Positions 1-58,931 of a stretch of DNA of 62,268 nucleotides are shown piece by piece (the stretch's first letter is position 1; each line of letters opens with the position of its first letter). Origin of the DNA: Psammoneis japonica (taxonomy: Eukaryota); assembly GCA_008632985.1 (NCBI GenBank), contig QPGO01000312.1:1-62268 (forward strand). Direction: 5' to 3'. The position numbers were made by a program, and so were the translations under genes. Below the pieces are notes generated by a model, which was not told the origin of the DNA, did no database searches, and was given only the letters and a program-made list of their open reading frames with translations.

Positions 1-3000
1 CAAGGGGACGCTTCTACTCCGACCAGATGTTTTTGAAGGTTAAATGGACACACGGTGAGATGGGAGGAAGTGTTTTTACCAATGGAAGAGGGTGTGACAG
101 GTTCCATCCTTGGAAGAGGAAGCAGGACCACCCAGATGCCGTCATGTCGTTCACACATGATGTTGGCATACCTCAAATCCTTGTGTTGGATGGCACACCA
201 AAAATGGCGGAAGGCCAGACCAAGGACATTTGTAAGGAGGATGGGATGCATCAGGAAGTGTCCACCCCATGCAGCCCCTGGCAGAACCCAGCCGAGGCAT
301 CCATTCGTGAGCTGAAGAAGAGGGTCCGTGTGACCCCATGCTGGACTGGCGCTCACAGGCGACTTTGGTCCCATGATGCCAAATGGACATGTGCGACATC
401 TGACGCATGATTGCAACTGGCACATCGGACATGGGAGGACAAGTTCCAGAGGAGGAGGTGACAGGCTTGACACTTGATGTCTCATCTCTCTCTCTCTCTC
501 TTTTTGATTGGTGTCAACCTGTCTGCTGTCACATGCCCATGGTGGAGATCCCACATGAAAAGAAGTGCATTGGCCATTGGCTCGGAGCAGCCAATGGCTG
601 CACAGATGACATGGCATTTATTGTCCGGCCCGAATCAGGCAGACCCATCATTCGGAAGGATGTGTGGGCTGTGCCGGAGGATGATCTTAAAACTCTGGCG
701 ATCCAGACAGATCTTGCATCAGTCGATCACATGGAACCCAATGCTTCCAAACCAGAGGCTGATGAGTGCACCCCAGAGGGGCTTGACAAACACCTCACAG
801 CTCAAGTCATGTTGCCACGTGGAGGTGAACTAACCCATGCTAGGGTCATTGCACGCAAACGGGACAGTGACAGGGTTCCTGTTGGCACTGGGAACAATGA
901 CCCCATCCTGGACTCCAGAACATGTGATGTGGAATTCCCTGATGGATCCATGGACTCCTACACTGCTGATGTAATTGCAGAGAATCTATTCACTCACATA
1001 GACTCTGAAGGCAATGCCTGCCAAATCATGAAGGAGACAGTCAATCACCGAAGTGATGCTTGTGCCATAAAGGCTGATGATGGGCACATGACAACTAAGA
1101 CTGGTGGGCGTGCTCCTGGGATGACGACCACAGGCTGGGACCCACAAGTTGAATGGAAGGATGGGTGTACATCCTGGGTTCCTCTCAAGGATTTGAAGGA
1201 ATCCAACCCAGTCAAGGTTGCTGAGTATGCTGCAGCAAACAAAGTGGCCAGTGAACCAGCTTTTAACTGGTGGATCCGAGACGTCTTGTGTTGCAGGTCG
1301 AGGATCCTGAAGAAAGTCAAGTCGAGTTACTGGAAATGCACACATGAGCTCGGAATTGAACTCCCAAAATCTGTTAAGGAAGCCATGGAAATGGACAACA
1401 GAACGGGGACTGACTTCTGGTTCAAGGCTGTTGAGAAGGAAATGCGTAACATCATGCCTGCGTTCGAATTTCGCGATGACGACACTGTGCCGGTTGGGTG
1501 CGAACACATTGATTGTCATGTGATCTTTGACATCAAAAGCACCCTCCAATGTAAGGCGAGGTTCATGGCCAGAGGCCATCAGACCAATCCACCCAAGGAA
1601 TTGACTTGTTCCAGCATGGTTTTGTGTGACAGCATTAGGATGGCATTCACTGTGGCAGCTCTCAATGACCTGGAGGTCCTGAGTGCCGATGTTCAGAATG
1701 CCCACCTGAATGCACACACTGAGGAAAAGTGTTGTGCTGCTGCTGGCCTGGAATTTGGGAAGCACAACAAAGGAAGGCCAGTGTTTATTGTCCGAGCCTT
1801 GTGTTGTCTCAAATCTTCAGGTGCAAGGTTTGGGGAACACATGGCAGCTGCCTTGCGTGACGCTGGGTTCGAGTCTTGTAAGACTGACCCAGACGTTTGG
1901 ATGCAAGCTGCGGTTAAGCTGGATGGCTTCAAGTGCTGGGAGCATGCACTTGTCTACGTGGACAACTTGTTGAGCATCTCACATGAACCTCAGAAAGCCA
2001 TGGATTACATGAGCTCTGGGCACACACTCAAAGATGGAAGTGTCTGCGAGCCGGAAGAGCACTCGGGCGTCCAGATCAGAAAGCACCAGTTGTCTGACTT
2101 GGACAGTAAGACACACTGGGCTATGTCCTCTGACCTGTGTGTCAAAAAAGCATTAGCTGATGTTGAGTTGGAGCTTAAGAAAACTGACAGGCACCTTCCG
2201 ACAAAGGCATCGACGCCCTTGAGCTCGGGATGCAGGCCTGAACTGGACATAGTTCACCTGAGTTGAATGCCAAAACGGCCAGCTGCTGCCAAGGCCTTGT
2301 CGGTGTGCTCCGGTGGGCAGTTGAACTGGGGCGGGTGGACATTTTTGTTGCTGTCTCGCTCATGTCCTCCTGCTTGGTGGCACCAAGAGTTGGACACCTG
2401 GACGAGGTGCTCCATGTCTTCGCGCACTTGAAGGCTCATCCTAAGTCTGCTCTGGTGTTCGATGACACTGAGCCTGTCTTTGATGAGAGCCAATTTGCCA
2501 AGTGGGATTGGGAAGAATGCTGCCCTGGCATGGCTGAGCCGATGCCGCCAAACATGCCAGAGGCACGCGGGAATGGCGTGACTGCTGCTTGCTTTGTTGA
2601 CGCCGATCACGCCGGATGCTGTGTGATGTGCAGATCCCACACTGGGATCTTAATGTTCATCCAACAAGCACCCATCTTGTGCTGCTCTAAATGGCAGAAT
2701 GCCGTGGAGTCCTCTACTTTTGGGTCTGAGTTATTGGCAATGAAGACTGCAGTGGAGCAGATTGAGGCTTTGCATCACAAGCTTCGGAGGCTCGGAATCC
2801 CCATGGATGGGGCCACCAATGTCTTCTGCAACAATGAAGCTGTCTTCAAGAACTCCACTAAGCCCAAGTCTATGTTGAAGAAGAAGCACAATGCAATTGC
2901 CTGTCACAGAACTCGTGAGGCACAAGCCGCTGGAATGGTGCGCATTGCTTGGGAAGACAGACACACAAATCTAGTGGATGCACTAACCAAGTTGTTGCTT

Positions 3001-3377
3001 GGACCAAAGCTCCGGGAGATCACAAGTCACATCTTATGGTGAGTCCCAAAAGGGAACAAACCACACGGGTTTGCCATGCAGGTGCGGTTTTTCCCACCCC
3101 CAAAATGAAAATGCCACCCTGGAACAGGGCAGCATCAGGTTGCATTTGTCTGTCAATCTGGCCCAAGCAGAGCTAGTGTCAGTTCGAGGGGACTGAACAA
3201 ATGCTGACACACTGTCACGAACACAGGCAGTTTATGTGCTGTTGGCGATTGGTCCACTGTTGCTTGTTCAGTGGTCCCAGTGGTGTAACATCTCACAATT
3301 CTAGAACCTGTTGATGCTGTTCAACACTCTGTCTTGCATTGTGCCGAATTCTCAGCTGTCATGGGAGCATTTGTTCA
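1..3377 (+). mobile_element. Degenerate Ty1/Copia (CoDi-like) LTR retrotransposon, family A: integrase-RT-RNase H plus 3' LTR; 5' part lies outside the window
   Basis: Frameshifted ORFs 27-410 (integrase, PWQNPAE), 407-2266 (RT: ADVQNAHLNA, RALCCLKSSG, LVYVDN), 2263-3042 (RNase H: FVDADHAG, ESSTFGSE, NLVDALTK). PPT GAGGGGAC just before 3194. Confidence 0.93.
3194..3377 (+). repeat. 3' LTR of Copia family A (184 bp)
   Basis: Follows the PPT. Perfect 12-bp inverted termini TGAACAAATGCT (3194-3205) / AGCATTTGTTCA (3366-3377). Confidence 0.85.
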
Positions 3378-3393
3378 GATTTCTACTCTGAGC

Positions 3394-4017
3394 AGTTGAG
3401 GAATGAAGCCATGTGAATGAGCATTAAGTTCTACGTACGCGCATGAAGAGTAGAAAAAAACAGGGTTTACATGTCAGAAAGTGTGCTTTGGTGTTAAGTG
3501 GGAGGAAACCACGAAAGTGGCACCAGCTCCTACGGCATCACTGGTTTTGACCATGCTGATTTCTACTCTGAGTGGTTGTGAGCCTGTACCTTCCTTGCGG
3601 CCTTGGGTTCGAATTGCCCCCAATGCCTTCTGTCTGCTTCATGGCCAAAACTGGCGTGTGAGAACCACGTGCATGCCACGTTCACACAGGCAGACAGACA
3701 ACCCCAATGACCCGAACTCGATGGCAGCATTGCCCCCAATGTCTCCCCGGCCAACAGCCAACCCGGGTGTCCCCTCATTCACGTGATAATGAGGTCCGCC
3801 GCATGATTGAAATAATCACCATCGAGAGGGAGAGTTGAGGAATGAAGCTGCATGGATGATCGTTAAGTTCTATGTGTGTGCATGAAGAGTGAAAAAAAAC
3901 AGTGTTTGTGTGTCAGAAAGTGTGCTTTGGTGTTAAGTGGGAGGAAACCGCGAAAGCGGCACCAGCTCCCATGGCACCACTGGTTTTGACCATGCAGTGC
4001 TGATTTCTACTCTGAGT
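3394..4017 (+). mobile_element. TRIM-like miniature LTR element: ~180-bp direct repeats 3394-3573 and 3833-4017, ~260-bp internal part
   Basis: Direct repeats. GGTTGTGAGCC (3574-3584) is one change from the half-tRNA-Met PBS GGTTATGAGCC. PPT GAGAGGGAG at 3824-3832. Third repeat copy at 42224-42403. Confidence 0.6.
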
Positions 4018-5503
4018 GTTGCTGGAGTGCACAAGGTTGCAGCATGCATCAGCTGACAGGAGATGAGTGATGGAGGGGAAGGATCATTTGTGGAAGAGGG
4101 TGCTTTGTGTTTGCTTGTTGGCGAGGTGGGTGGTGAGATGGTGAAGGTCTGTGGCAAAAGAGGCAGCTTTGTTGTGTGGGAAGTTCATGGCAAAGGCGAA
4201 TGAGCCAATGGGTTGGCCGAGGAAGCAGATGCCGGTGGTGATTTTGGGCTTGATGTGTGAGTCATTGTTAGGATTAAGGAAGGTGATGGCTTCGGAGAGA
4301 GCATCGACATCGGCGGGTGGGATGCAGTTGATGGGAGAGGTGCCGGTGGTGGATGTGAGAATTTGTGTTTTGGAGGTGTTGAGGTTGATGCCAAATTGGG
4401 GGCGACAGGCAGAAGGTTGCTTGAGAAACCAAGAGAGCTGGGAAAAGGAGGGGGGGATGTGGGCATCATCAATCTATGATGAAGCAGCAGAATTGGATCG
4501 GGGAGGAAGCCGGTGATGCAACTCATCATTGATGGGGGTGAATGCATGGGTGAGGACCAGGCAGGAGAAGGCATGGCTGAGGGGACAGCCTTGGGCAAAT
4601 CCTTCAGGCTGAGAAAAGGAAGACCATTGCAGTTGATGGTCTTGACACCAGCAAGTGTTGGGGTCTTGGTAAAGTGGGTCAAAAAAGGCACGATGGCACG
4701 GTGTGTTTGTCAGAGGTTGTAAGGGTGTCACGGCAAGCATCCCGAGAGCATTCATTGAAGCAATTGGAAAGGTCAAGAAGGAGGAGAGCTTTTGTGGGTG
4801 TGGAGTCTAGCTGAAAGAAACATTTGATGTTGGTGCAAGTGGTGTCCACAAGGTGGTTGAGGCCGCCTTTGACACTGCCGACTCTGAATTGGCCAGAGAG
4901 AAGGAGGTTGGTGGCAAAGGTGGCAGCAAGGAGATGCATGACAAGGGGGTGCAGGAAATTCTCCACAGGGCTGTGCCAACACCAATTGGTCAAAGTTTGA
5001 AAAGGTTGGATGAATCCTTGTGTGGGGCAAGGAAACCATTGCATGAAAAAGCAGGTTTGATGGATGTAGGAATGTCTGCTGTGAGGATGAGGTCGAGCAG
5101 GCATTTGAAAGTGAGCAGGTGGGGGTGTGAGGAGGATGTTGGTGCAGAGCTGTGGTGAAGAGCACAGGCCTTGAAAAGGTCAGTGGACTCATCGAAGGCT
5201 CTGCACGCTTTGCCTGGTTGACATTTGGACAATGCTTTTTGAAGGTTGCCGGTGGTGAAATGCAGGGGGGGAAGCAGATTGGTGGTGTCGGGTGGATGGT
5301 GCAGTGGACAAGCAGGTGTTTGCATGGCAGGCAGAGCTGTTTGACAAGCTCCATGCTTTTGGGAGTGAGAGATGCAACAGGAAGGGAGGAGGTGACCCGG
5401 GCGTAAGCGGTGTGAAGGTTGTTGACATTTGCAGCGATTTGAGCAGAATGGACATAGGATGAGTGGTCAAAGTCAGGAGGTTCATCAGACATGCATGGCA
5501 TGG
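4018..5503 (-). pseudogene. CRE-like (RLE-class) non-LTR retrotransposon RT fragment
   Basis: Frameshifted minus-strand peptides GQFRVGSVKGG, ALLLLDLSNCFNECSR, EGFAQGCPLS and downstream xIDD match non-LTR RT motifs. Confidence 0.8.
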
Positions 5504-6704
5504 TGAAAAGAAATTGAAGATGACTGGTTGGAAGAAAACAACAACTCCTTGCTGCTGTCTAAATGGCAGATGAGTCTCCATGCAGAGACTGTTACAGGAG
5601 CCAAAAGACTGGTGTTGTTGACATCGGTGCTGCTGTCATTGTTCTTGTGAGCCATGTGGCTCGAAAGCAAACTGCATCATGTGTGGCGCGTGGAACTAAG
5701 AGCACACATAATTGTGTGTGACAAACTAGAATCTTGTTCAAATCCTGTCCTTCCCCAGTTTGCTTGAGGGGTCAACAGCAATAGATTTGAGGTCAGATTG
5801 GTTGAAAGCCTTGGGATCAAAGTTCCAAAACATTAGAGGACAAAGGAGGTTCCATACCTGGGAGTGACCCCAGTGCTTGCTGAGGATGTCAGCTGGGTTG
5901 TGGGAACCTTCGATGAAATGAAACTCAAGGAAACCACAGGCAATTGCCTCCCGCACACGATGGAACAAGAGGGCGGCATGTTGCTTGTGTAACTTGGAGT
6001 GCGGGATGCTGGCACTGTCCACAACCAACTTGTTGTCCCCGAACATGTAACATGTTTCACGAATGGGGCTGCCAAGGTAATGTAAAGTGATGTGCAGATC
6101 AATGATCTGCTCAATGCATGTCCTTGCGGCAACAAACTCAGATCCATGCGTGGCAGGCTTGACTGTTGCTTGTTTTCTTGGAGAACCAATCAGCCGGAAA
6201 CTCATTGAGGAAATGAAGGATGCCGGTGACAGAGCATCCGGTGAGCATGCAATGGAACAAGTTTGCATCAACATAGTGTGTCGTGGTGACAAACTTGCCA
6301 AGTGGCTCAGGTGCATCTTGCAGGAGCAGCTCTTCTACCTCCCCATACACAGATTGGGCCCCCAGTCATTCACGAGCTTGGGAAGGTCCGAATAGTCGGG
6401 CTCCTCAGTGCGGACTCAGAGGGCACCATGGCGCATCTTGGAGAGGAAACCGCAGATACGTTTGGCATGGTCTAGGTGGCCTTGACGGGGTGCTGCATGG
6501 AAGCTGGACAGGGACATGACAGCCACAGTGATGTCAATGTGACCAAGGGATGCAGCCCATTGCAGAGAGCCAATCAAGGACTGGAATTGGTGGATGCCAT
6601 CCGGTGGGAGTGGTTTGGAGGTGTCAAGCTCAGGGTGGTCTCCCTTGTCAAGAGGTGAAAGCACATCAGTTTGAGGCTTGCTTCTCCCCAAAGAGACGTG
6701 CACA

Positions 6705-7742
6705 AAACAAAACCCAACATCTACATTTAAGGTGCCATTGCGCTTCCACCCAGCAACTCTGGCAACAAGCTAACCCACCCCCCTGGTGCACATATATGCG
6801 GCAGGGGCATGTAGCGATCAGCCTGGACCGGCATCACAGTCAGGTGATGCCGCACCAGTCAGGTGATGCCGCACCGAAACAACTAGCGATTGTGTGAGTG
6901 CCCCTCACTGCTGTCCTCTTTGCCTCCTTAATGCTGGATTTGAAGATGGTTCTTGCCATTTCCAACCAATTTTGTAGTCTATGAGTTGAATGAGTTAGGT
7001 GTTCATCCACCAAGTCACATAATGCGGACCTGTCCTTTGCCAGGTAGTCATTCGATCTGGAATGTATGGCCTTGACTTCCGCCTCTGCATCTCTCCTTTG
7101 AGCCGATTTCCTCATTTCTGCATCATGACCATGCACTGGGTCGTTATGGTGATCCCACAGATCCCACCATTGAGACCAGATGAAACTTCCTATAGTGGCC
7201 AACCAATCCAATCTCTGGATATTCTCTTCAGCGTCGGGAGGAAGGTCTATGCCACCGAGATGCGCACAGTGCGCTTCGTTCCATTGAACGGCAAATCTGC
7301 CATTGAACAGCTGCCTCCATCCAATCTGGTCTTGAGAATAAAACACCACTATAACACTGTGGTGCAGGTCCTCCGGATACACAATCGTGTCGCGAAACCA
7401 AGCTTTGAGGGCTTCCAAGAGAAGATCACGAATGGGGGGGGGGTGCATGAATGTCACCGCATTTCTTGCGTAGGCCTTGTAGGAAGGTACGGCGCCATGT
7501 CTCGTTGTGGGGACATTTTAAGATATGATCCCTGTCCTCCATTGAATGGGAGCAATGCATGCAAGCGTCTGGACGATTGGGGTTGCACCGATGTGCTATC
7601 TTGTTTGTGGGTAACAAGTCTTGGACCAACTTGATGGTGCTGACTTTATGCCTGATGTTCCTTGACATGAGTTTAGAATGAGACGACCAATCTATGGACT
7701 GAAGCACTTCATCTGTTCAAGAGCATTTCTCCTTCATATGTT
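6705..7742 (-). mobile_element. 5'-truncated Ambal-like LINE (ORF2 C-terminus plus 3' UTR)
   Basis: C-terminal zinc knuckle CMHC..EDRDHILKC, IGWRQLFNGR, WDLWDHHNDPVHG. GTTTT-type tail. 15-bp TSD AAAGAGACGTGCACA at 6690-6704 and 7743-7757. Confidence 0.85.
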
Positions 7743-10140
7743 AAAGAGACGTGCACAGTTGTCAACCATGGGCTCGATGTGCTTGCAAGGAGCAAGGCAC
7801 AGGGTGCCGTCTGGATCACGGGTGAAGTCGCAACCAAGATGGAACTCCAGTGGTCCAGTGCCCTTGAGCTTGAACTTGCACTTCTCCATGAGAGTGTCTC
7901 TACAAAAGCCTGGGGATTCTTCATGGCAAAGGCCAGCAGGTCATCCACATACACTGCCACACACTTGCAGTGGTGCGAGTGGTCACCATTCCCACACAGC
8001 CAGATGTTGGGTTCAGCTTTGCACGGGAAGAAACCTTTGGCATGCAAGCAACCGGCAAAGCCTTCATGCCACCTGATGCCGGAGCTGCGGAGTCCGCACA
8101 AGGCCCTGTGGATGACAAGGATGTGTCCTTCTTCTAGCTTGCCAAATTTGGGACCTGCAATGATGTACAGTTTCTCCTTGGTCGCAGCTTTGAGCAAGGC
8201 ATTCCCAATGTTGGTTGCCCAAGTCTCTAGGTCGTTGAGTTCTGCCAGAAAGATCATCATTCGCAGGCCACAAAGAGACACTACTCCGGAGTAAACACTG
8301 TGGACAGGTACGTCTTTGAGGTGTCCATCGGCAACAAGCCCCTTGCTTTGTGCTGTCCATCATGTTTGACATAGACAAGATGCACCCAGATCTTCTTGTG
8401 TCCTGATGGGGTGCTGGAATCCTTGTAATGTCCGCAGTCGTGGAAGACCTCATACTCATCGAGCTGAGTCATCTCGAGGTCCATTGCATCTCCCCACTTG
8501 CAGTTGCAATTGCGCTCATTGAGGGCCAAGGCGTGCTTATAGTCCCAGGGCACTCCAAACAGCAGTGCAAAAGGAGCACAACTTGGCTTGATTGGCCATG
8601 TAGAATAGCTTCTTCTGGCACAGAGCTGCAGTCCGGAAGCATTTCTAGCCCTTGGTCTTGAGCAAACCGTGTTTGCATGCGTAAATGGCACAGGTGATGG
8701 GGTCATCCTTGGCAACAAAGATGGCAAGGGTTTCAGACCCAATCTCCCCATTCTCCCATTCAAGCATGATGTTGTAGCTTGAGCCTTTCCAAGAGGGATC
8801 ATGGGGTCGCAATGGTCCTTCATGCAACACGATATGTCAGAATTTCCAGAGGGTGGTGTCCTCGTCTTCTTGCTCGATGTGGTGCATGATGTCATTGTAG
8901 GCAGGGACTTCCTTGCATTCATTGCTGTTGATGGAGCAAATGAACTTGACCAGTTCAGGGTTGTCTCCAATTTTCCAGTCATGGTCTTCAACGGCTTTGA
9001 CGATGCAGGCTCTGTGGTGTTGTCTGTCCTCTTGTGGCTTCATGAGGAAGGTGCGTCCAATGACGTCCTTGGGGTCAAAGACCGGCATTTTGGGCATCTT
9101 GATTGCCTCCCCATCTGGTGGCTGAATCCGGTGAATCCTCAGAGTTGTGTCGGGATTTGATGACGGGTTCAGCAGATTCCTTGTCAGGAGGATCATGACG
9201 CAGGTTGGGAGCAGACGGATCATGGGCGGAATGTATGTTGGAGCGGTGGAGAATCTTCTGAGTGTTGTCAGAAATAATCTTGAACATCATGTGATGACCC
9301 ACGTGTTCGGCAATGCCAACGAAGCGGCCAAACAACTCACGGGATTTGGACAGCCAGTTGGAATCATCCAGGTGGCAGTGCATGGATTCCCACCATTGAA
9401 AGCAAAGGAGGAGCGGGTTGATGTCGGGGGTAGAGCCAGACAGCACTTTGGTGGGGGTGCACCAGTGGAGCTTGGCAGACGCCATGTGATTGAGCATGAA
9501 GCACACGCACATCAAGGTGGGCAGCCAGGTGTAGGCTGGAGATCTGAAGCGATCCATGATGGTGTTGGCTATGGTCTTCACAGTTTGGCAGTGGCATTCA
9601 GAAAAATTCTGGTGCTGTTGGTGGGGCTCGCTTTGCCAACTGGAGATGAAGAGTGCACACAGGACACCAAGGACCTTGTTGCTGATCTCAACCTGAGCAC
9701 GGTTGCTGATGAGCTTGGATGGGGCACCATGATTGCAGATGTTGTCTTTGAGCGTGTTGATGAATTCCTTGTCAGTTTTGGCTCTGTACACATCCGTGAC
9801 AAGAGATTCCGTGCCGACAAAGAGCTGGGTGCTGGTGCATCTGGAGTCAACGGCAGGGGTGTCAGAGTACAGTGTCTTTTGGGAGAAGCCAAAATAAGGG
9901 CAGAGAGACTCAAAGTCGGGATCCTTGGGATTGATCTCATGCTCATGGCATTTGTAGAAGAAATCGGACGTCGGGAGCAGGTGGTCATCAAGGATGGAGT
10001 CTGCAAGCATGGCATTGTTGATGACATGTTGGTGACGACAGTTTTCGAACTCATCAAATGGGTTGGTGGTGGGGTCATCTTGCAGGTCAGACATGGCATC
10101 ACACCACTTCTCATCGTCGATGAACTGGTGGTCATGGACA

Positions 10141-10465
10141 AAACACACAGTCCAATTTTAAGTGCTGCTGCGCTTCCACCCTGCAACTCCGGCAACAAGC
10201 TAACCCACACTCCCAGCACACTGTGTGCAACAGGAGCATGTATCAATTAGCCAAGATCAGCATCACCCTTGGGTGATGCCATGCCAAAGTAGCTTGCAAT
10301 GGTGCACGTGCCTCTAACTGCTGGACGTCAGGCTTCTCAGACACTCGTCTTGAACATCGGCCTTACCACAGCTAGCCAGTTTTGTATTCTGCGGGTAGAG
10401 TGAGTGAGATGCTCAACAACTGCTGAGTTAAACAACTGAGCTCGGTTGCAGGCTAAGTGCTCATC
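10141..10465 (-). mobile_element. Second 5'-truncated Ambal-like LINE 3' end
   Basis: Homologous to 6705-7000 (AVRGTCTIASYFGMASPKGDADLG*, same 3' UTR and T-rich tail). 5' boundary approximate. Confidence 0.78.
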
Positions 10466-10844
10466 AGCTTGTGTACGCCCTTTTCAGGTGCATGCTGGCG
10501 GGCATGTGGGTGTACTGTGTTGTGCAATCAAAAGTGCGGTAAACAGTGTCATTCGGGAGGAAGCCAAAATGAGGGCGGAGAGACTCATAGTCGGGATCCT
10601 TGGGGGGTTGATCTCGCGCTCATGGCATTTGTAAAAGAAATCAGACATCGGGAGGAGATGGTCATCTAGGACAGAGTCTGCAAGCATGGCGTTGTTGACA
10701 ACATGTCGGTGACAACAGTTGCCAAACTCATCAAAGAGGTTGGCAGTCAGAGATTGTCCTGCAGGTCAGACAGGGAGTCATGTGCCACTTCTCATCGTTG
10801 GTGAACTGGTGGTCAAGGACAGATGGGTCCCATGCATCATCGCC

Positions 10845-11090
10845 AGTGAGAACGAGTGTAGATACGAGGTAGTAGACTTGGCGTGCGTGTAGCAAGGCCA
10901 GAGTCAGACGATTTTATAGTGTGCACGTAAACGCGTGCGGATGGATTGGTCTGTCTGCCAACCAGGGCAGAATCCACTGTAGGGAATCCGGAATCTCGGA
11001 TGTCTGAGAGTTTGGGAATTCCTGACCAAACAAGCATCCGTTGAATAAATATATGCAACGACGGGAGGTGTTGGATAAATCCAAACGTCT
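10845..11090 (-). repeat. Fragment of Copia family B 5' UTR
   Basis: Close match to 35600-35830 (GGATGGATTGGTCTGTCTGCCAACC...GGAATCTCGGATGTCTGA). Confidence 0.75.
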
Positions 11091-11099
11091 GACGACGAT

Positions 11100-12320: not shown

Positions 12321-12329
12321 ATTTTCACA

Positions 12330-15660: not shown

Positions 15661-15981
15661 GGGAGCGGCGAAGTGTGTTGGGATCTTGGTGTTAGACCAT
15701 GCGCAGCGCATGCTCCAAAATTCCACCGTCTTTCCGTGTCTCCTTGCTACGGTAGTCTACCTACAGTACCGGTACATACAGTACAGTTGCTGTGAAGCGT
15801 GGCGTGGTGGCAGCGAGGCAGCAGACAGGGAAGAATTATTCACATCATAGATCATGGTCATGGGGCTTACTTCTAGACTACGGTAGGGCCCTCTCTAGCT
15901 AGAAGTTACTGATTATTATTGCTGTGGCAAAAGTAATGCTGAGCTGTATTGCAGGTCATTTACGGGAAGAAGTCACTGGCA

Positions 15982-20870: not shown

Positions 20871-20884
20871 ATGATCTGTGATGT

Positions 20885-46470: not shown

Positions 46471-46481
46471 GATTAACAGTC
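46471..46481 (+). other. Putative primer-binding site complementary to a tRNA-Asn anticodon arm
   Basis: GATTAACAGTC abuts the 5' LTR; same at 59181-59191 and, on the minus strand, 36250-36260, 35952-35962 and 13672-13682. Confidence 0.65.
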
Positions 46482-50400: not shown

Positions 50401-53400
50401 GGCGCATGCCCCTCGAGACTCTTACTGGCTCCACCCCGGACATCAGCCCATTGCTTCGCTTTCACTGGTGGGAACCCGTGTACTTCCACCTCGATGACTC
50501 CGATTGGCCATCCGAATCCTGTGAGTTGCGTGGACGCTTTGTTGGCATTGCTGAACACGTCGGCCACCAGATGACCTTTAAGATTCTTTCTGACGACACT
50601 CAGAAGATCCTCTGCCGGTCCAATGTATGACCCGCTACCACCGATCCTTCCGTTCGAAACCTGCGTCTTGATCCTCCTGATGGGGAGCCACCTGAACCCA
50701 TCATCAAATCTTGCCATGACGACAACCCCATCGATTCACCTGATGGGGAGATCAGGACACCCAAGATGCCAGTTTTTGATCCGCAAGACATCATCGGACG
50801 CACCTTCCTCATGCAGCCACAAGAGGACGGACAACGCCACAGAGCTCGCATCGTCAAGGCCGTTGAAGATCACGACTGGAAAGTGAACGGCAACCCCCAG
50901 CTCACTAAGTTCGTCTGCTCTGTCAACAACGATGAATACGAGGAAGTCCTGGCCTACAACGACATCATGAATCACATTGAGCAAGAAGACGAAGACACCA
51001 CTGTTTGGAAATTTCGACGTATTGTGTCACACGAAGGACCTCTGAAGCCTCATGACCCAACCTGGAAAGGCTCAAGCTACAACATCATGCTTGAATGGGA
51101 AAGTGGGGAGATCACGTCCGAGCCTCTTGCCATCATCGCCAAGGACGACCCTGTCACCTGCACCATCTATGCACGAGAGAACGGACATCTCGACACTGAT
51201 GGCTGGAAGCGGTTCCGCACCATTGCGAGGCGCCAGAAGAAGCCATTCGGCATGGCCAACCAAGCCAAGCTTCGCTCCTTCCGCACTGCACCTCGCTACA
51301 AGTACGGATGCGAAGTTCCCCGGAACTACAAACACGCCATGTCCCTAGACGAACGCAAAGGCAACCGCAAATGGGGAGACGCAACCAATCTCGAGATGGA
51401 CCAACTCAATGAATACGAAGTCTTTCATGACTGCGGGCCCTCCGAGTCTTCCACTCCTCCTGCAGGACACAAGAAGATCCGAGTGCACCTAGTGTACGAC
51501 GTGAAACACGACGGCCGCCACAAGGCACGACTCGTAGCCGATGGACACCTCACGGACGTACCCATCGATAGTGACTAATCTGGAGTAGTCTCCCTTCGTG
51601 GCCTTCGGCTGATGATTTTCTTGGCCGAACTCAACGAGTTGGAGACATGGGCCACCAACATTGGTAATGCCTACCTTGAAGCCACCACCAAGGAGAAGCT
51701 GTACATTGTAGCTGGACCCGAATTCGGCAAACTCGAAGGCCACATTCTTGTCATCTACAAGGCCCTGTATGGACTGCGCAGCTCCGGCCTCCGCTGGCAC
51801 GAGCGCTTCGCCGACTGCCTGCGAGCTGAAGGTTTCTTCCCCTGCCGCGCCGAACCCGACATTTGGATGCGCAGGAGCGGCGACCACTACGAACATGTTG
51901 CCGTTTATGTGGATGACCTCGCCATTGCCATGAAGGATCCTCAATCTTTCGTCAATACTCTCACGGAAAAGTACAAGTTCAAGCTCAAGGGCACGGGACC
52001 GATTGAGTTCCATCTAGGCTGCGACTTCTTCAGGGATCCTGACAGCACCTTCTGTCTATCTCCGCGCAAGTACATCGAACACATGGTTGACAGCTACACA
52101 CGATTGTTTGGGGAGTAACCTACCACCAACGTCCTGTCCCCTCTGGAAAAGGGTGACCACCGACGCGTTCCAGCCCTAGGTGGGACTCCGTGTGACATTT
52201 GGCCCGTAGAATTCTACGTGCGAGCTCCGTAGTACGAGAATTTAATTAATGGATATATTTATCTTCAACATCAAATAAACGGCCAAGTTTGTGGTACAAT
52301 TATGCCTCTTACCACTCGACGTTTTTGCAAATGCACCTGCCCTACGCGATTTTTAAGACATTATAGAATCGCGCTGTAACAAAAAATGTCAAAAGTTTTT
52401 GGACGGATCGCTCAATAAGTGTACCGTAAAATGACACAAAATATCAAAAAATCACGTAGAATTCTACGTGCGCGACATACGACGAGATTCAAAAAACTAT
52501 CGATGTCACAGTTCAGTAGTGCGAGGTCCCACCTAGACCTGGAACGCGTCCACCCCGAACTGGACACTTCCGAACTGCTGGGGCCCGATGGCATTCAACA
52601 GTTCCAGTCTCTTGTTGGTTCCCTCCAATGGGCAGTGTCTCTTGGTCGAATTGACATTACCACGGCCGTCATGTCACTCTCTGGCTTCTGAGCTGCGCCC
52701 CGTCAAGGCCACTTGGATCGTGCCAAACGCATCTGTGGGCACCTCTCCAAGATGCGACACAGCGCTCTCCGCGTTTACACGGAAGAGCCCGACTATTCAG
52801 ATCTCCCTGCACCGGCCTATGAATGGATGTATTCCGTGTACGGCGAAGCAGAGGAGATGATCCCGAAGGACGCTCCACCGCCCCTTGGCAAGTTTGTCAC
52901 TACCACCCACTACGTCGATGCAAACTTGTATCATTGCATGCTCACCGGACGCTCTGTCATGGGAATGCTCCACTTCCTCAACAAATTCCCGGCTGATTGG
53001 TTCTCTAAGAAGCAAGCCACCGTGGAGACTGCAACCTACGGGTCTGAATTTGTTGCCGCAAGGACTTGTGTCGAGCAGATTATCGACCTGCGCATTACCC
53101 TGCGTTACCTTGGCATCCCGATCCGTGACATTAGTTACATGTTCGGTGACAACAAGTCGGTTGTGGACAGTGCCACCATCCTGCACTCCAAGTTACACAA
53201 GCGACACACCGCTCTGTTGTTCCATCGTGTGCATGAGGCGATTGCCTCTGGTCACCTTGAGTTCCACTTCATCGAAGGCTCCCGCAACCCTGCTGACATT
53301 CTCAGCAAGCGCATTGGGTTACTCCCAAATCTGGGACCTTCTCCGTCCCCTCATGTTTTGGAACTTCATTCCATCCAAAGTCGAATCTGTTTCTGTGACT

Positions 53401-53432
53401 CCTCAAGCAAACTGGGGAGTGACAGGATTTGA
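47405..53432 (+). pseudogene. gag-pol polyprotein (gag, protease, integrase, RT, RNase H) with several stops and a MITE insertion
   Basis: ALVDRGVNGG, ISDRAQVE, WQSEPHQQHQN, YKALYGLRSSG, AVYVDD, TATYGSEF, NPADILSK. Confidence 0.95.
52162..52550. mobile_element. MITE (389 bp), same family as 14116-15187, 4-bp TSD CACC
   Basis: TIRs GACGCGTTCCAG(CC/GT)CTAGGTGGGAC. CACC at 52158-52161 and 52551-52554; removal restores the Copia codons GDHPEL. Confidence 0.95.
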
Positions 53433-54958
53433 ACAGGATTTAGGTGCACGCGAAATGTCGCGCGCTATTTAGTTTACTGCACACAGTTTTGTGTGCTCTT
53501 TAGTTCCGCGCGTGCGCGCGCGATGTAGTTTGCTTTCGAGCCACATGGCTCACAAGAATAATAACAGTAGCCCGATTATACTGACTTACACGTCTTTTGG
53601 CTCCTGTGACGGTCTCTGAGCGGAGACTCATCTGCCATTTAGACAGCAGTAAGGAGTTATAGTTTGAATTCTTGCCATTTGCCTTCAATTTCTGTCACAA
53701 CCATTTTTGGAACCATTTCTGGGACCACCTTGGTTTTGGAACCAGGCTTGCCTTTGCCATCATCTTTGATGTAGATTTGGTCAAATGTGTCCTCTGCAAC
53801 CTCCAGACGTTCCAAAAACTCAACCAACTCGTCAAAGGTATGATCCAAAATTTCAAAACCTTGCCGGGTTGACTGACGACCCACTTGCGAGGTGCAAGGT
53901 TGTGGATGACATCCTTGAGCTCATCATCTTCCAAACTGTGGTTTGATTCAAAGGGAGGATAGAACTTGAAGTCCTCATTGACCTCCTGAGCCCATGCGGC
54001 ATGGTTTGATTCAAAGGGAGGATAGAACTTGAAGTCCTCATTGACCTCCTGAGCCCATGCGGCAATTTCTCAAATCTTCATTGACTTGGGTCTCTTGAGA
54101 TCATGTTGTAGATGTTGTTTCTGAATCTGAAGTGCATTCTTCGGGAAGACATGGTTAGAGAGACAATACAGGCACTTTTCAAAGGCTCCTTCAGCATCTT
54201 CATCATCGGCATTCACTGCCTTGTTCTCAAAAACTTGTAGAGCGCCTCCCTGCAACAACATGTGCATCATCTGAAACTTATGGGCTTGCTTCTCGACATT
54301 CCATCCAATCAAGACTTTCTTGCAGTTATTGAGAAATTGTGTGTGCTCTTAGTTCCGTGCATTGTGTGTGAAATGTAGTTTGCTTTCAAGCCGCTCAGCT
54401 CATAAGAACAATGAAAGTAGCACCGACATCATGACACCAGTCTTTAGGCTCCTGCAACGGTGTCAGCACGGATCCTCATCTGCTAAGGACCAATCCATCT
54501 GCACATGCTCACGCACACAAGATGTGCTCATCTGACTCTGGCCCTGCTCCATGCATGCCAAGTCTGCTGCCATGTATCTGCCCCAGATTGCTGGTCTTCT
54601 ACAGTTCTACAAGGTCTCCACAAGGATGACTGTGAGAGGAAGCAGTTTGTGATTGCACCTGCCTTGGGGCGAGGGTGCCTTTCCCACATTTGTTCGTCCC
54701 TCCACAATGCTTGTTTGGCTGCCCTGATCAGGTTATCCAACCGATGCAAAATGAGAACGGTTTGGGGGTCCACCTCTGGTTGGTTTGTCAGCAGGGTTTT
54801 TTAACCTGTTACTCCACTCTCAAGCAACCCAAGGTGTCACCATCCATGGGTTCAGACGTGCGGGCACAACTCTGCAGACCAGATGGGAAGCTCAGCACTT
54901 AACTGCAAACAGGACAGCACAACCCGGCGGCTTCTGATTTGCAACATAGTTCAAGATT

Positions 54959-55131
54959 TCAAGTCAAGTCTCAAGTCAAGTCTCAAGTCAAGTCTCAAGT
55001 CAAGTCTCAAGTCAAGTCTCAAGTCAAGTCTCAAGTCAAGTCTCAAGTCAAGTCTCAAGTCAAGTCTCAAGTCAAGTCTCAAGTCAAGTCTCAAGTCAAG
55101 TCTCAAGTCAAGTCTCAAGTCAAGTCTCAAG
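54959..55131 (+). repeat. Perfect tandem repeat (TCAAGTCAAGTC)x14 plus a partial unit, in the Copia 5' UTR
   Basis: Read directly from the sequence. Confidence 0.97.
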
Positions 55132-57345
55132 CCAATTCAAGTTTAACCTCTTGTCCAAGTTCTGACACCCTCCTCAGTTGCACCATGGTCCTCACCTGAC
55201 AGCAACAAACTGATGGCTTTGAGCACATCTCAGGCACTGTTCTGAACCAAGCTGCAGACAGTCCTTTGTGCTCTTCCCTCAACATCAATGGAACCAACTC
55301 CCACCAGGATCTCTTCATGTTTGCTCCAGCCCAACTCAATGCCTTAGTTTGCAATGATGGCACCAACCAACTCCCGTTGCCATGAGGATGCAAAGCACTC
55401 ATGGTGGTGTTGATAAGTTTTTACACTGTAACCTAGTGCGCTTGCATGCCTGCCAGTGTGCAAGTCACCCAACCTGGCTCTCAACAACTGTCACCACAAC
55501 AAACCTGTTACCACTGACACGGTGCACTCCGACACTGCCTCTGTCAACTCTGGATGCATCAGCGCACAGCTCTTTGTTGGTGTGGAATCCCTCGTCACCC
55601 ATGTGTGTGGCACCAAGATGGACAAGGAATTTGTCAACACCCTCAAAGACAACATTCACAACCATGGTGCTCCATCCAAGCTCATCAGCAATCGCACCCA
55701 AGTTGAGATCAGCAACAAGGTCCTTGGCATCCTCCATGCCCTCTTCATCTACAGTTGGCAAAGCGAGCCCCACCAACAGCACCAGAATTTTGCTGAACAC
55801 CACTGCCAAACTATGAAGAACATGGCCAACACCATCATGGATTGCTTCGGATCTCCGGCCCACACCTGGATCCTCGCTCTTATGTGCATGTGCTTTGTGC
55901 TCAACCACACAGCCTCTGCCAAGCTCCACTGGTGCACCCCCACCAAAGTGCTGTCTGGATCCACTCCTGCTGACATTAGCTCCCTCCTCTGTTTTCAATG
56001 GTGGGAACCTGTGCACTGCCACCTGGATGATTCGGACTGGCCATCTAAATCCTGTGAGTTGCATGGTCACTTTGTTGGCATTGCCGAACACGTGGGTCAT
56101 CACATGATGTTCAAGATTCTTTCTGACAACACTCAGAAGATTCTTTACCAGTGTGACATCTGCTCTGCCGCCGGTGACCCGTCGATGCACAATTTGCATC
56201 TTGATCCTCCTGATGGGGAGTTTGCTACACCCATCATCATCAAATCCCCTCATGACTCAGAGGATTTGCCAGATTTGTCAGATGGGGAGGAGATCAGGAT
56301 GCCCAAGATGCCAGTCTTTGACCCCAAGCACATTGTTGGATGTGCCTTTCTCATGAAGCCACAAGAGGATGGACAGCGCTGCAGGGCCCGTGTCATGAGG
56401 CTGTTGAGGACCATGACTGGGAGATCGGTGACAACCCAGAACTCATCAAGTTCATTTGTTCAGTTGACAATGATGAATGTAAGGAAATCCTTGCCTGCAA
56501 CAACATCATCCATCACACAGAGCAAGACAATGACAACACAACCATCTGGAAATTCTGATGTGTTGTGTCACACGAAGGACCGTTGAGGCCCCACGACCCC
56601 TCTTGGAAAGGCTCAAGCTACAACATCATGCTTGAATGGGAAAGCAGGAAGATCATGTCTGAACCCCTTGCCATCATTGCCAAGGATGCTCCCATCCCCT
56701 GTGCCACATGCGAACGTAAGCATGGCCTCCTCATAACTGAAGGATGGAAGTGCTTTTGCAAAATAGCTTTGCACCAGAAGAAGCTGTTCCACATGGCCAA
56801 CCAAGCCAAGCTGTGCTCATTTTGCACTGCCCCATGCTACAAGTGCGGGTGTGAAGTACCGCATGACTACAAGCACCCTTGGCCCTCAAAGAGCACAATG
56901 GCAACTGCAAGTGGGGAGATGCAATGAACCTCGAGATGACTCAACTCAGCGAGTGTGAGGTCTTAAATGATTGTGGACACTACAAGGACTCTAGTGCCCC
57001 AGCAGGACACAAGAAGATTTGCATGCACCTGGTCTGTGATGTCAAACATGACGGCAGGCACAAAGCATGACTTGTTGCTGATGGACAACTCACTGACATG
57101 CCCATCAACAGCATCTGTTCTGGTGTAGTGTCCCTCCATGGTCTCCAATTGATGATCTTCCTAGCTGAACTCAACAAGCTGAAGACATGTGGGTGACCTA
57201 CATTGGCAATGCCCACCCAGAAGCCATGACCCCAAGGAGAAACTGTACATCATTGCAGGTCCCAAATTTGGAGATTTGGAAGGACACATCCTTGTCATCC
57301 ACAAGGGTCTGTATGGCCTCCGCAGCTCCGGTCTCAGGTGGCACA

Positions 57346-57515
57346 TCGTACTGTCACTAGTTACTTCGGTGCGGCATGAGGGTGATGCCGGTACAGGCTG
57401 ATCGCTATATGCCCCTGCCGCACACATGTGCACTGGGGTGTGGGTTAGCTTGTTGCCGGAGTTGCTGGGCAGAAGCGTAATAGCACCTTAAAAATAGATG
57501 TCATGTTTTGTTTCA
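57346..57515 (+). mobile_element. Third, ~170-bp 5'-truncated Ambal-like LINE 3' end
   Basis: Reverse complement of the 6705-6890 region. TSD GTCTCAGGTGGCACA at 57331-57345 and 57516-57530. Confidence 0.87.
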
Positions 57516-58931
57516 GTCTCAGGTGGCACATATGAGTGCTTTGCCGATTGTTTGCAAGCTGGAGGATTCTTCCCATGCTGCGCCTAACCTGACATCTGGT
57601 TATGCTGGAATGGTGACCATCATGGACACGTGGCAGTGTATGTGGATGACCTGGCCTTTGCGATGAAAGATCCCCAGGCCTTCGTCCACTGTCACAGAGA
57701 AGCACAAGTTCAAACTCAAGGGCACTGGACCTCTGGAATTTCACCTTGGTTGCACCTTCTCTCATGACTCCGATGACACGCTGTGCCTGGCTCCTTACAA
57801 GAAGTGCATTGAGCGCATGGTCAAGAATTGCTCACGCCTTTTTGGGGAGAAGCCTCACACCAACACTCAGATGCATTGAAATCACTACATCCATCGTGTC
57901 CCTCTCCAGCTTCCATGCTGCACCCCGTCAAGGCCATTTGGACTGCGCCAAACCTGTCTGCGGATTCTTGTCCAAGATGTGACATGGTGCCCTACGAGTG
58001 TGCACTGAGGAACCCGACTATTCAGATCTTCCCAAGCCTGTGCATGACTGGGCTCAAACCACACATGGTGATGTGAAGGAACTGATTCCTGAAGATGCAC
58101 CTGAGCCTCTTGGTAAGCTCATCACCACGACCCACCATGTTGATGCAAACTTGCTCCACTGCATGCTCACTGGATGCTCCGTCACAGGCATCCTTCACTT
58201 CCTTAACAAGTTTCCAGCTGATTGGTTCTCCAAGAAACAAGCTGCAGTCGAGACTGCAACTTGTGGATCTGAGTTTGTTGCCACTGAGACATGTGTAGAA
58301 CAGATTGTTGATCTGCACACCACATTGCATCACCTCAGAGTCCCGATCCGTGACACATGTTACATGTTTGGGGACTGCAAGTCAGTTGTGGACAGTGCCA
58401 CCATCCCGCACTCCAAGTTACACAAGCGAAACACTGCCCTCTTGCTCCATCATGTACATGAGGCAATTGCCTCCAGTTTCTTCAAGGTCCACTTTATCGA
58501 AGGTTCCTGCAACCCTGCTGACATCCTCAGCAAACACTGGGGTTACTCCCAGGCTTGGAACCTCCTCCATCCTCTCATGTTTTGGAATTTTGATCCTGAG
58601 GCCTTTGGTCAATCCGACTTCAAATCCATTGCTGTGGACTCCTCAAGCAAACTGGGGAGTGACAGGATTTGAACAAGTTTTTAGTTTATAGCACATAATT
58701 GTGTGTGCTTTCCATGCGTAACATGCGTGCGTGCGTGACATAGGGCCGTGGTAGTTTGCTTTTGAGCCACTCTCGGCTCACAAGAACAATGACAGCAGCA
58801 CCGATATCATGACACCAGTCTTTCGGCTCCTGTAATGGTGTCTGCACGGATGCTAATCTGCTGTTTAGACAGCAGTAAGGAGTTGTTGTTTTCTTCCACC
58901 CAGTCATCTTCATTTTCTGTCAGGTTGACGT

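Follow-up and report, generated by a model that had tools for sequence, protein, structure and literature searches.

TpA dinucleotides are lost by context-specific transitions, alongside CpG decay, from transposon copies in a Psammoneis japonica chromosome region

The window analyzed here, a stretch of 62,268 nucleotides of Psammoneis japonica contig QPGO01000312.1, is a diatom chromosome region crowded with LTR retrotransposons (Table 1). Its four diverged Copia copies, A to D, are 68-76% identical and are separated from one another in the alignment by frameshifts and 24-32% substitutions. Copy C retains TG..CA termini and a perfect 5-bp target-site duplication (TSD). The segmental duplicate consists of a solo or 3' LTR and a 1.5-kb G-rich repeat, and the kinase of the unique region has WNK homologues in diatoms with up to 85% identity. 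An earlier sequence-only reading of this DNA had pointed to a mismatch between the terminal inverted repeats (TIRs) of a Plavaka element; the mismatch is there (CAACAAT/CAATAAT in the pair 21918-21943 / 30228-30253), but the label finds no backing, the element having no Pfam match and its 397-aa ORF no homologues. None of the 73 ORFs from unannotated regions, this element included, that were put to Pfam (those of about 85 aa or longer, out of 147 ORFs of at least 70 aa) gave a match at E<=0.05, and the Pfam search of the window's ORFs revealed no deaminase gene.

Table 1. Features of the window, with observed/expected (O/E) ratios of TpA and CpG
Feature	Positions	Strand	Evidence and remarks	TpA O/E	CpG O/E
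Copia family E fragment (second Copia family)	1-3300	+	RVT_2 (Pfam), ORF 404-2263; heavily decayed	0.24	0.41
Segmental duplicate	4020-5855		Self-BLAST; partner 43516-45349, 96% identical	0.10 (unit 4020-5508)	
Copia copy A (old)	5509-10900	-	RVT_2 at 7712-8359(-), Pfam	0.32	0.44
Unique control region with WNK-type kinase ORF 15943-18909	13900-19000	+	Pkinase 1.7e-49 (Pfam)	0.69	0.98
8.3-kb element between 26-nt inverted repeats	21918-30253		Repeat pair I1, 92% complementary	0.40	0.60
Copia copy B, internally deleted	31089-36000	-	Self-BLAST and alignment	0.44	0.65
Gypsy element: RVT_1, RNase H, integrase remnants	36500-42000	+	Pfam	0.27	0.27
Copia copy C, complete young insertion	46193-53697	+	LTRs 46193-46470 / 53420-53697; TSD CAACC		
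Copia copy D, old, most decayed copy	54300-58923	+	TpA/CpG retention, polarised A>G		
Strand-coordinated tract within copy D	55322-57116	+	15 successive TpA losses, all TA>TG		

In the transposon-rich DNA, O/E is 0.10-0.44 for TpA, 0.27-0.65 for CpG and 1.4-2.1 for TpG/CpA (in Copia E, TpG 1.71 and CpA 1.52), as against 0.69, 0.98 and about 1.1 (TpG 1.11, CpA 1.14) in the unique kinase region. In the old copies TpA is 40-90% below the level that base composition predicts, their conserved Tyr codons have become Cys or His, and the erasure of TAA and TAG has left long spurious ORFs on both strands. Along 62 one-kb bins, TpA O/E follows CpG O/E (Spearman 0.78, p=1e-13) and runs against TpG+CpA (Spearman -0.83), with no correlation to ApT or GpC. 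Recounting gave exactly the TpA numbers obtained by eye in the sequence-only reading (4 in 38161-38460 vs 17 in 16861-17160), and the CpG->TpG/CpA decay said to accompany TpA loss is found in the same copies. The process had also been called repeat-restricted: the unique gene region appears to be spared, the control being one region of about 5.1 kb, partly coding, in a single window and compared by composition rather than by a polarised spectrum. Fungal RIP turns C to T at CpA and raises TpA. The changes seen here resemble RIP in being repeat-directed, dinucleotide-specific transitions that wreck the coding capacity of transposons and skew dinucleotide indices; unlike in RIP, A:T bases are hit, and the indices of the old elements (TpA/ApT 0.24-0.31; (CpA+TpG)/(ApC+GpT) 1.65-1.82) are the mirror image of a RIP signature, in which the first rises and the second falls.

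All counts refer to the single 62-kb window, and the substitutions to its four Copia copies polarised by majority rule. In copies A, B and D together, A>G changes are found at 52/291 TpA sites (0.179) and at 159/3422 sites (0.046) where the adenine follows A, C or G (p=7e-15), so that the comparison named in the sequence-only reading as a test of its proposal came out in its favor. The excess is strongest in copy D (31/118 at TpA vs 53/1335 elsewhere, p=1e-14), smaller in copy A (15/90 vs 69/1254, p=3e-4) and not significant in the young copy C (8/117 vs 117/1336); strict four-copy columns agree (copy D, 10/54 vs 16/675). By 5' base, the copy D rate is 0.042 after A (15/359), 0.043 after C, 0.034 after G and 0.263 after T, while the 3' base alone has no effect on A>G in the polarised copies, and ApT is therefore not raised. 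Transversions at TpA are not raised either (5/291 in copies A, B and D; one, beside 31 transitions, at ancestral TpA in copy D). Both strands are affected, as had been claimed: among 67 inferred ancestral TpA sites of copy D, 31 are kept, 22 became TG and 11 CA, and the products in copy A are 6 TG and 10 CA. Of 100 inferred ancestral CpG sites in copy D, 38 are kept, and TpA loss parallels CpG loss copy by copy, the kept fractions of TA and CG being 0.46 and 0.38 in D, 0.59 and 0.58 in A, 0.77 and 0.73 in B, and 0.83 and 0.81 in C. The TpA changes are nearly all transitions; their per-site rate exceeds background several-fold to about 20-fold and reaches about 0.4-0.9 of that at CpG. In a non-coding set of LTRs from nine copies, in which the counts take in changes shared by descent, CG is kept at 0.61, TA at 0.72 and the other dinucleotides at 0.76-0.98.

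The protein-level footprint is visible in several element families. All seven peptides quoted in the sequence-only reading lie where it placed them, with the codons it gave: YKALYGL (51756-51776, TAC..TAT) vs HRALCGL (8090-8110, minus strand), TATYGSEF (53028) vs TATCGSEF (58253) and PATHGSEF (6134, minus strand), and, in what it called family A, NAHLNA (1697) and RALCCL (1793). Of eight positions at which 120 outside homologues conserve Tyr, Copia E has kept one and shows three Cys, three His and one Trp at the others. In the Gypsy RNase H ORF (40003-40752), Tyr makes up 0.4% and Cys 5.2% of residues, compared with 4.3% and 1.5% in 150 homologues, and its seven Tyr-consensus columns hold one Tyr, four Cys, one His and one Trp. 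Copia A and Copia E as well as the Gypsy element have had conserved Tyr converted to Cys or His; of the claim that Copia, Gypsy and DNA transposons are all affected, two Copia families and one Gypsy element stand, and the supposed DNA transposon is an element recognized by its TIRs.

The change at TpA arises at least partly on chromosomal DNA after insertion, since the LTR pair flanked by a TSD, the segmental duplicate and the tandem copies all differ at TpA, on both strands. The LTRs of copy C, 94% identical, differ at 16 sites, of which nine are of the CpG type, four are other changes and three are TpA<->TpG/CpA, as the sequence-only reading had counted. Among the 66 mismatches of the segmental pair are four TA|TG and three TA|CA (13 TA kept), 11 CG|TG and nine CG|CA (21 CG kept). 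When these two pairs and four tandem pairs are pooled, TA|TG (24) and TA|CA (12) stand against 66 TA kept and 49 CG-type differences against 63 CG kept, with A<->G mismatches at 9/510 sites preceded by A and 9/533 preceded by G. Copy C, however, has a CpG O/E of 0.93 and yet a TpA O/E of 0.24-0.33 at silent codon boundaries (0.75 in the kinase gene, where CpG at codon 3|1 boundaries is 1.10), and part of the TpA depletion has thus been inherited along the active lineage; this part could have originated at the RNA or cDNA stage. With copy C already TpA-poor at that CpG level, the earlier suggestion that DNA methylation triggers the process is not established.

An outside control was provided by 80 related Copia loci from metagenomes, presumably from other hosts. 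TpA is retained in 78 of the 80, even where CpG is gone (median TA 0.66; TA-CG rho -0.16, no correlation), and of the 13 loci with CpG O/E <0.35, all but one keep TA at 0.59-0.83 with CpG down to 0.08. Judging by these sequences, TpA loss would not be inherent to this lineage of Copia elements when it resides in other hosts. At positions where the relatives from metagenomes concur on TA, copy D has kept 5/41 sites, copy A 10/43 and copy C 23/45; reverse TA gains in the same polarisation number 2-6 of about 225. Methyl-CpG deamination, which is present in the same window copies with a similar per-site magnitude, accounts only for CpG>TpG/CpA, as the 12 low-CpG relatives that keep TA illustrate.

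A real transposon-directed TpA process acting on DNA appears very likely. The account that we favor, with a probability of about 0.6, is that CpG>TpG/CpA decay and a separate TpA-specific process hit the same transposon copies, the second being an enzyme-driven base modification directed at mobile or foreign DNA, of the kind described in Bigelowiella natans. Most likely, the adenine of 5'-TA-3' would be deaminated to inosine and the inosine read as G at the following replication; TpA being palindromic, a hit on either strand would leave TpG or CpA. From the earlier proposal of a second process besides CpG decay, the context-specific A:T>G:C change at TpA is retained, and the coupling to methylation and the Pol eta route are not.

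In B. natans, giant-virus and virophage DNA integrated in the genome undergoes TpA hypermutation, which was seen directly in mutation-accumulation lines: 230/231 mutations in viral inserts are A>G or T>C and every one of these lies at TpA, only some of the lines showed de novo events, with rates of about 1e-7 to 1e-6 per site and generation, and low-TpA coding sequences are enriched in RT and DDE domains (bioRxiv 10.64898/2026.01.13.699255). The transposons of the window fit the cluster cut-offs given there (Rho TpA <=0.43, CpA+TpG >=1.52), and the two systems appear to share A:T>G:C transitions confined to TpA, and TpG or CpA products depending on the strand. In B. natans, foreign or silent DNA is the target and the rest of the genome has an ordinary spectrum, which may hold here too. 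The near-exclusive A>G / T>C spectrum and the TpA confinement recur here as 52 transitions vs 5 transversions and as 0.179 after T vs 0.046 otherwise. By this analogy, the process is probably the same in kind. In contrast to B. natans, the host is a diatom and not a chlorarachniophyte, the mutations are deduced from diverged copies and not observed de novo, the targets are high-copy LTR retrotransposons, and strong CpG decay, which the text of the preprint does not discuss, runs alongside. The sequence-only reading knew of no description in diatoms; the literature searches turned up no diatom report, and the chlorarachniophyte preprint is a precedent.

As to the responsible enzyme, an adenine deaminase is a candidate to which we give slightly less than even odds. 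Deamination chemistry is common to ADAR, ADAT (TadA) and APOBEC, and the ADAT/TadA tRNA substrate U33-A34 has U directly 5' of the edited A, matching TpA. The natural substrates known to us are RNA for ADAR and ADAT (TadA) and cDNA for APOBEC, unlike here, where part of the change is in chromosomal DNA and on both strands. Editing of the ADAR type restricted to the transcript strand before integration does not fit, as duplicates differ at TpA and TG and CA products both occur.

An alternative that we hold to be improbable is that a TET/JBP-type dioxygenase oxidizes T in repeat TpA to 5hmU or 5fU, which pairs with G and yields T>C, hence CpA/TpG; in duplex DNA the outcome equals that of adenine deamination and the two are inseparable by sequence. 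Excision of oxidized T is expected to yield transversions too, but the TpA changes are nearly all transitions, and TpC shows no visible effect. Dinoflagellates, also algae of the SAR clade, offer a parallel in 5hmU, an A:T-pair modification made by TET/JBP homologues, enriched in repeats, silencing transposons and, per older work cited there, found mainly in TA and TC; 5hmU acts there as an epigenetic mark for which a mutational footprint is not reported, and it is not known from diatoms (PMC11572971). This diatom is not known to have a TET/JBP gene or 5hmU, and there was no diatom paper among the listed matches to a JBP/5hmU literature search.

Somewhat less probable still is editing of retroelement RNA or cDNA (ADAR- or ADAT-like A>I) fixed by reverse transcription, with no chromosomal mutagenesis. 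It would suit the TpA-poor silent sites of the active, CpG-rich lineage of copy C, the 1.8-kb tract of copy D with 15 one-strand TA>TG changes, and the comparison of the high-copy family with the window copy, where 8 of the 40 best-supported differences listed are TA in the window and TG/CA in the family. LTRs that were identical at insertion nevertheless now differ at three TpA sites, as do the segmental and tandem duplicates at others; both strands are hit in copies D and A, the TIR-bounded element is depleted as well (TA 0.40), and the 3'-G preference typical of ADAR is not seen at TpA sites. Such editing could contribute but cannot be the sole cause.

Explanations with no special mutagenesis are very improbable, whether a composition or codon usage that the elements inherited, gene conversion biased towards GC, or an artefact of assembly or base calling where bases are modified. 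The family ancestor was already TpA-poor, gene conversion of this type favors A/T>G/C, and some long-read base callers can err systematically at modified bases; against this, the polarised TpA losses are copy-specific, down to the LTRs of one element, other A/T contexts are not raised, CpG shifts GC in the opposite direction, and the related metagenomic elements, presumably from other hosts, retain TpA. An artefact is further opposed by the frameshifts and substitutions separating the copies, and by contigs of run X1, all from one sample that is possibly the assembly's own, which agree without a single difference with the decayed sequence at 54035-54562 and 54665-54900. Error-prone patch repair of the Pol eta type (WA>WG) was a candidate in the sequence-only reading; in the form considered here, T:G mismatches left by deamination of methyl-CpG would draw it in. 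It agrees with TpA loss following CpG loss per copy and per bin, but is contradicted by the data and the least probable of all, since its signature hits TA and AA alike with many A:T transversions, and here ApA is not raised, TpA transversions are rare, relatives often show CpG decay with TpA intact, and copy C shows the reverse.

To our knowledge, directed mutagenesis of mobile DNA has been known for C:G pairs, in the form of RIP, APOBEC and methyl-CpG decay. For A:T pairs there was no precedent before the 2026 preprint on one rhizarian alga, and a footprint in diatom retrotransposons suggests that the TpA process may occur widely across the SAR clade. The search for the enzyme could profit from diatoms, which are tractable and dominant in ecological terms, and from comparing hosts that carry the footprint with hosts that lack it. 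The process would account for the long false ORFs and the Tyr-poor, Cys/His-rich pseudo-proteins of transposon-rich diatom DNA, and TpA decay bears on annotation and on the dating of transposons by LTR divergence; if the account is true, base-editing work would also have an interest in a naturally occurring DNA adenine editor specific for TpA. A bolder version, which we regard as unlikely, would credit this lineage, if not diatoms as a whole, with an enzymatic defense of the genome that deaminates the adenine of TA in transposon DNA, in strand-coordinated tracts and independently of CpG methylation. Homologous to the Bigelowiella process, it would be a mirror image of RIP with an ancient origin in the SAR clade and the first defense known to use a natural DNA adenine deaminase, and active transposon lineages would show its footprint as TpA avoidance.

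Two further features of the TpA sites are not reported in the text of the B. natans preprint. A possible preference for a 3' pyrimidine appears in the family-polarised sets (47/219 vs 17/231, p=2e-5) and in tetranucleotide composition, and is absent among the 30 events in young duplicates (15/92 vs 15/94). The one-strand tract of copy D gave p=0.002 in a longest-run permutation and p=0.05 in a runs test, this strand-coordination test having been chosen after the data were seen; CpG losses in copy D show no such coordination (p=0.28). The 15-event tract is also compatible with a single-strand or RNA-level event.

An ORF encoding a WNK-type protein kinase (15943-18909; Pkinase, Pfam, 1.7e-49) is the one clear host gene in the window. 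Its closest matches, with identities of up to 85%, are proteins of raphid pennate diatoms, Bacillariaceae, Epithemia, Fistulifera and Seminavis among others, and the earlier labelling of the source as a diatom therefore holds. The rest of the 62,268-bp window consists for the most part of transposons, including four copies of one Copia family (A to D, pairwise identity 68-76%), a second Copia family (E) and a Gypsy element, and contains several tandem duplicates.

Features of the window and the two doubly depleted metagenome loci, with observed/expected (O/E) ratios of TA and CG
Feature	Coordinates	Strand	O/E TA	O/E CG
Copia E (second family)	1-3300		0.24	0.41
Copia copy A	~5509-10900	-	0.32	0.44
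Copia copy B	~31089-36000	-	0.44	0.65
Copia copy C (young)	46193-53697	+	0.57	0.93
Copia copy D	~54300-58923	+	0.29	0.31
Gypsy element	~36500-42000		0.27	0.27
Segmental duplicate, 96% identical	4020-5855 / 43516-45349		0.10-0.13 (units)	0.34-0.38 (units)
TIR element, 8.3 kb, 26-nt inverted repeats	ends 21918 and 30253		0.40	0.60
Unique gene region			0.69	0.98
L078, metagenome Copia relative	1-1765		0.25	0.13
L079, metagenome Copia relative	1-5208		0.45	0.60

The O/E ratios of TG and CA reach 1.4-2.1 in the old elements, compared with 1.1 in the gene region. Across 62 one-kb bins, TA O/E follows CG O/E (Spearman 0.78), runs against TG+CA (-0.83) and is uncorrelated with ApT or GpC; in the same bins TA and CG are each independent predictors of the TG+CA excess (R2 0.83). 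From tyrosine codons turned to cysteine or histidine, the sequence-only reading had proposed that a second mutagenic process, acting on A:T pairs, targets the transposons beside the decay of CpG to TpG/CpA. All seven peptides it quoted, with their codons, were reproduced in the window, as were its TpA counts in two 300-bp samples (4 and 17) and a mismatch in the inverted-repeat pair of the TIR element (CAACAAT/CAATAAT), and the core of the proposal is supported by polarised, duplicate-pair and homologue comparisons.

With the four Copia copies aligned and the majority state taken as ancestral, A>G changes after T were found at 31/118 positions in copy D, 15/90 in A, 6/83 in B and 8/117 in C, and after A, C or G at 53/1335 in D, 69/1254 in A and 117/1336 in C. 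Pooled over A, B and D, the change affected 52/291 TpA positions versus 159/3422 elsewhere (odds ratio 4.5, p=7e-15), and columns represented in all four copies gave the same picture (D, 10/54 at TpA versus 16/675). The base 3' of the A alone had no effect on A>G in the Copia copies, so ApT is not involved. Copy D has kept 31 of 67 ancestral TA, with 22 converted to TG and 11 to CA, and 38 of 100 ancestral CG; the fractions of TA/CG kept are 0.59/0.58 in A, 0.77/0.73 in B and 0.83/0.81 in C. Few TA were gained from TG/CA (12/613 in D). The 8-12 "double" TG<->CA differences per copy are as expected if a single ancestral CG or TA had decayed in parallel but with different outcomes, so that the majority rule underestimates the losses. 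Among nine non-coding LTR copies, for which the counts include changes common by descent, the fraction kept was 0.61 for CG, 0.72 for TA and 0.76-0.98 for other dinucleotides.

Copy C has LTRs with TG..CA termini and is bounded by a perfect target-site duplication of 5 bp (CAACC), and its two LTRs were thus identical at insertion; they now differ by 9 CpG-type, 3 TpA-type and 4 other changes, in line with the 3 of 16 mismatches counted earlier. In a pool comprising this LTR pair, the segmental duplicate and four tandem pairs, 36/102 TA-bearing positions differ (24 TG, 12 CA), together with 49/112 CG-bearing ones, and A<->G differences amount to 9/510 after A and 9/533 after G. The differences within LTR, segmental and tandem pairs show that the process acts in part on chromosomal DNA and on both strands. 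At codon 3|1 boundaries, TA O/E is 0.24-0.33 in the young copy C versus 0.75 in the kinase gene, and CG O/E 0.73-0.87 versus 1.10; the active Copia lineage has lost TpA without CpG loss, which leaves the earlier suggestion of a methylation trigger unsupported. Copy D carries a tract (55322-57116) of 15 consecutive TpA losses, every one of them TA>TG (longest-run p=0.002, in a test chosen post hoc); no strand coordination was found for the CpG losses in this copy. The codon boundaries of copy C and the tract in copy D suggest a further component, either earlier or confined to a single strand.

When metagenome contigs were scanned with an RT alignment, 80 loci encoding Copia relatives (RT identity 53-76%) were recovered, six of which could be aligned to the window copies at the DNA level. 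Where these six agree on TA, it is kept at 5/41 positions in D, 10/43 in A, 23/45 in C and 7/19 in B, and reverse changes number 2-6 of ~225 (binomial p=1e-4 for A and 1.5e-3 for D). In the outgroup trinucleotide spectrum, which is noisy at ~35% divergence, TpA ranks first among the contexts in A (0.25) and D (0.29), without clean separation from CpA>CpG. At the protein level, tyrosine makes up 5.2% of residues in 120 RT homologues, 5.0% in C, 2.1% in A and 1.3% in E; of eight tyrosine columns conserved among these homologues, E keeps one and has cysteine in three and histidine in three. The Gypsy RNase H ORF, compared with 150 homologues, contains 0.4% versus 4.3% tyrosine and 5.2% versus 1.5% cysteine, and its seven tyrosine-consensus columns comprise one kept, four cysteines and one histidine, beside CpG-type replacements (R>Q/C/H, T>M, A>V). 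Loss of TpA has therefore affected two Copia families and, in addition, a Gypsy element. A protein-database search for the source organism's own Copia copies returned none above 74% identity.

Over the 80 metagenome loci, the median O/E is 0.66 for TA and 0.81 for CG, and the two ratios are uncorrelated (rho -0.16). Thirteen have a CpG O/E below 0.35, of which twelve (0.08-0.32) keep a TA O/E of 0.59-0.83, the other being L078; only L078 and L079 display double depletion similar to that of the window. As CpG-poor loci keep TpA, its loss does not follow from the decay of CpG and is not inherent in this Copia lineage, and the process seems confined to the Psammoneis host and a few others, the putative hosts of metagenome contigs.

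Contigs of sequencing run X1, which may stem from the sample used for the assembly, showed no differences from the window at 46000-46218, 54035-54562 and 54665-54900, which cover flanks and decayed stretches. The Copia family of copy C is very abundant, with a summed word depth of ~35,000-209,000 versus ~33 for single-copy sequence and 15,340 matched contigs, of which 2,260 are at least 99% alike. At places that depart from the window in at least 10% of the depth, the changes are 198 A>G, 205 T>C, 87 C>T and 72 G>A; in this family-wide excess of A>G/T>C (403 versus 159 G>A/C>T), CpG decay of the window copy and loss of TpA are counted together. The best 40 of 657 places include 11 with TG/CA in the window and CG in the family, and 8 with TA in the window and TG/CA in the family.

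A preference for a pyrimidine 3' of the affected A (TAY) is tentative. In the family-polarised sets, A was changed more often before a pyrimidine (47/219 versus 17/231, p=2e-5), also in the LTR set alone (15/69 versus 6/121), and among tetranucleotide classes in transposon-like DNA depletion is strongest for RTAY (O/E 0.20 versus 0.74 in CpG-rich DNA) and weakest for YTAR (0.33 versus 0.41). The preference was not replicated in 30 events from young duplicates (15/92 versus 15/94).

Changes that are almost purely transitions, strictly in the TpA context, on both strands of DNA, targeted to transposons and at a rate comparable to that of methyl-CpG decay, fit an enzyme-directed base modification. 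The favoured chemistry is deamination of adenine to inosine, which would yield A>G only; in the tRNA substrate of ADAT/TadA enzymes an invariant U lies 5' of the edited A. The alternative is that a TET/JBP-type enzyme oxidises the thymine of TpA, and 5hmU has been described as marking repeats in dinoflagellates, with a reported TA/TC preference (PMC11572971). The two chemistries are inseparable by sequence alone, and adenine deamination is favoured. Pol eta-type repair, put forward earlier as a candidate, is contradicted by the absence of an effect at ApA and by the scarcity of transversions at TpA (5/291 in copies A, B and D). Biased repair by a T:G glycosylase (MBD4/TDG or VSP-like) was rejected by reasoning from its known context, in which it would make CpG from TpG and not destroy TpA. 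Changes that are copy-specific and context-specific and that also separate LTR pairs are at odds with GC-biased gene conversion, selection and inherited composition.

The closest case is that of Bigelowiella natans. Of the 302 nuclear mutations in its mutation-accumulation lines, 231 mapped to two integrated viral regions, and 230 of the latter consisted of A>G or T>C changes, without exception at TpA, at rates of ~6e-7 per site per generation and in some lines only (bioRxiv 10.64898/2026.01.13.699255). The same preprint describes TpA-poor, CpA+TpG-rich clusters genome-wide and an enrichment of RT and DDE domains among low-TpA CDS, and the enzyme put forward by its authors is an ADAT2-like DNA adenine deaminase; its main text mentions neither diatoms nor CpG. 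Psammoneis represents another SAR lineage, and the targets here are endogenous high-copy retrotransposons. To the B. natans picture are added TpA loss beside but not tied to CpG decay, the one-strand tract in copy D and, possibly, the TAY preference. In Phaeodactylum, the mutation-accumulation spectrum is biased towards GC>AT, the mutagenic dinucleotides being CG, CC and TG, and the available part of that paper does not mention TpA (PMC6604790). Our literature search found no description of the TpA process in diatoms.

Loss of TpA creates long false ORFs, a trap for gene callers: the O/E of stop triplets in transposon-like DNA is 0.37 for TAA, 0.31 for TAG and 1.52 for TGA. The window holds 43 stop-to-stop ORFs of at least 200 aa, many of which overlap on both strands and lack a Pfam match (for example, 4087-5635, 8284-10247 and 42535-45129). 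None of the 73 unannotated ORFs searched against Pfam, including those of the TIR element, matched at E<=0.05, and the 397-aa ORF at 27557-28747(-) had no homologue at E<=0.001; the name Plavaka, previously given to the TIR element, is thus unsupported. No clear target-site duplication was found at its ends.

Several further features were noted. A duplicated 1.5-kb G-rich unit adjoins an LTR (strong GC skew, +0.39 at 4001-6000 and +0.27 at 44001-46000), and the segmental-duplicate pair has 216 conserved TG versus 120 CA. In Copia C, an 850-aa ORF (47369-49918) lies upstream of RT, where gag, protease and integrase are expected in Copia elements, and has no Pfam match at E<=0.001; the window's sole N is at 49795, where seven run X1 contigs omit one base. 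The 5' part of Copia D includes a 12-bp tandem array, TCAAGTCAAGTC, at 54959-55135 (14.8 copies, 99% matches). A 305-aa ORF at 60462-61376(-), with a weak, below cut-off Phage_integrase match (E=0.027), may be a remnant of a tyrosine-recombinase element. Finally, a 309-aa ORF at 12316-13283 without a Pfam match, distantly related (64%) to 42704-43517, contains an internal tandem duplication (12789-13040 / 13029-13283, 89% identical) with 25 mismatches, 6 TpA-type and 7 CpG-type, in a CpG-rich region.
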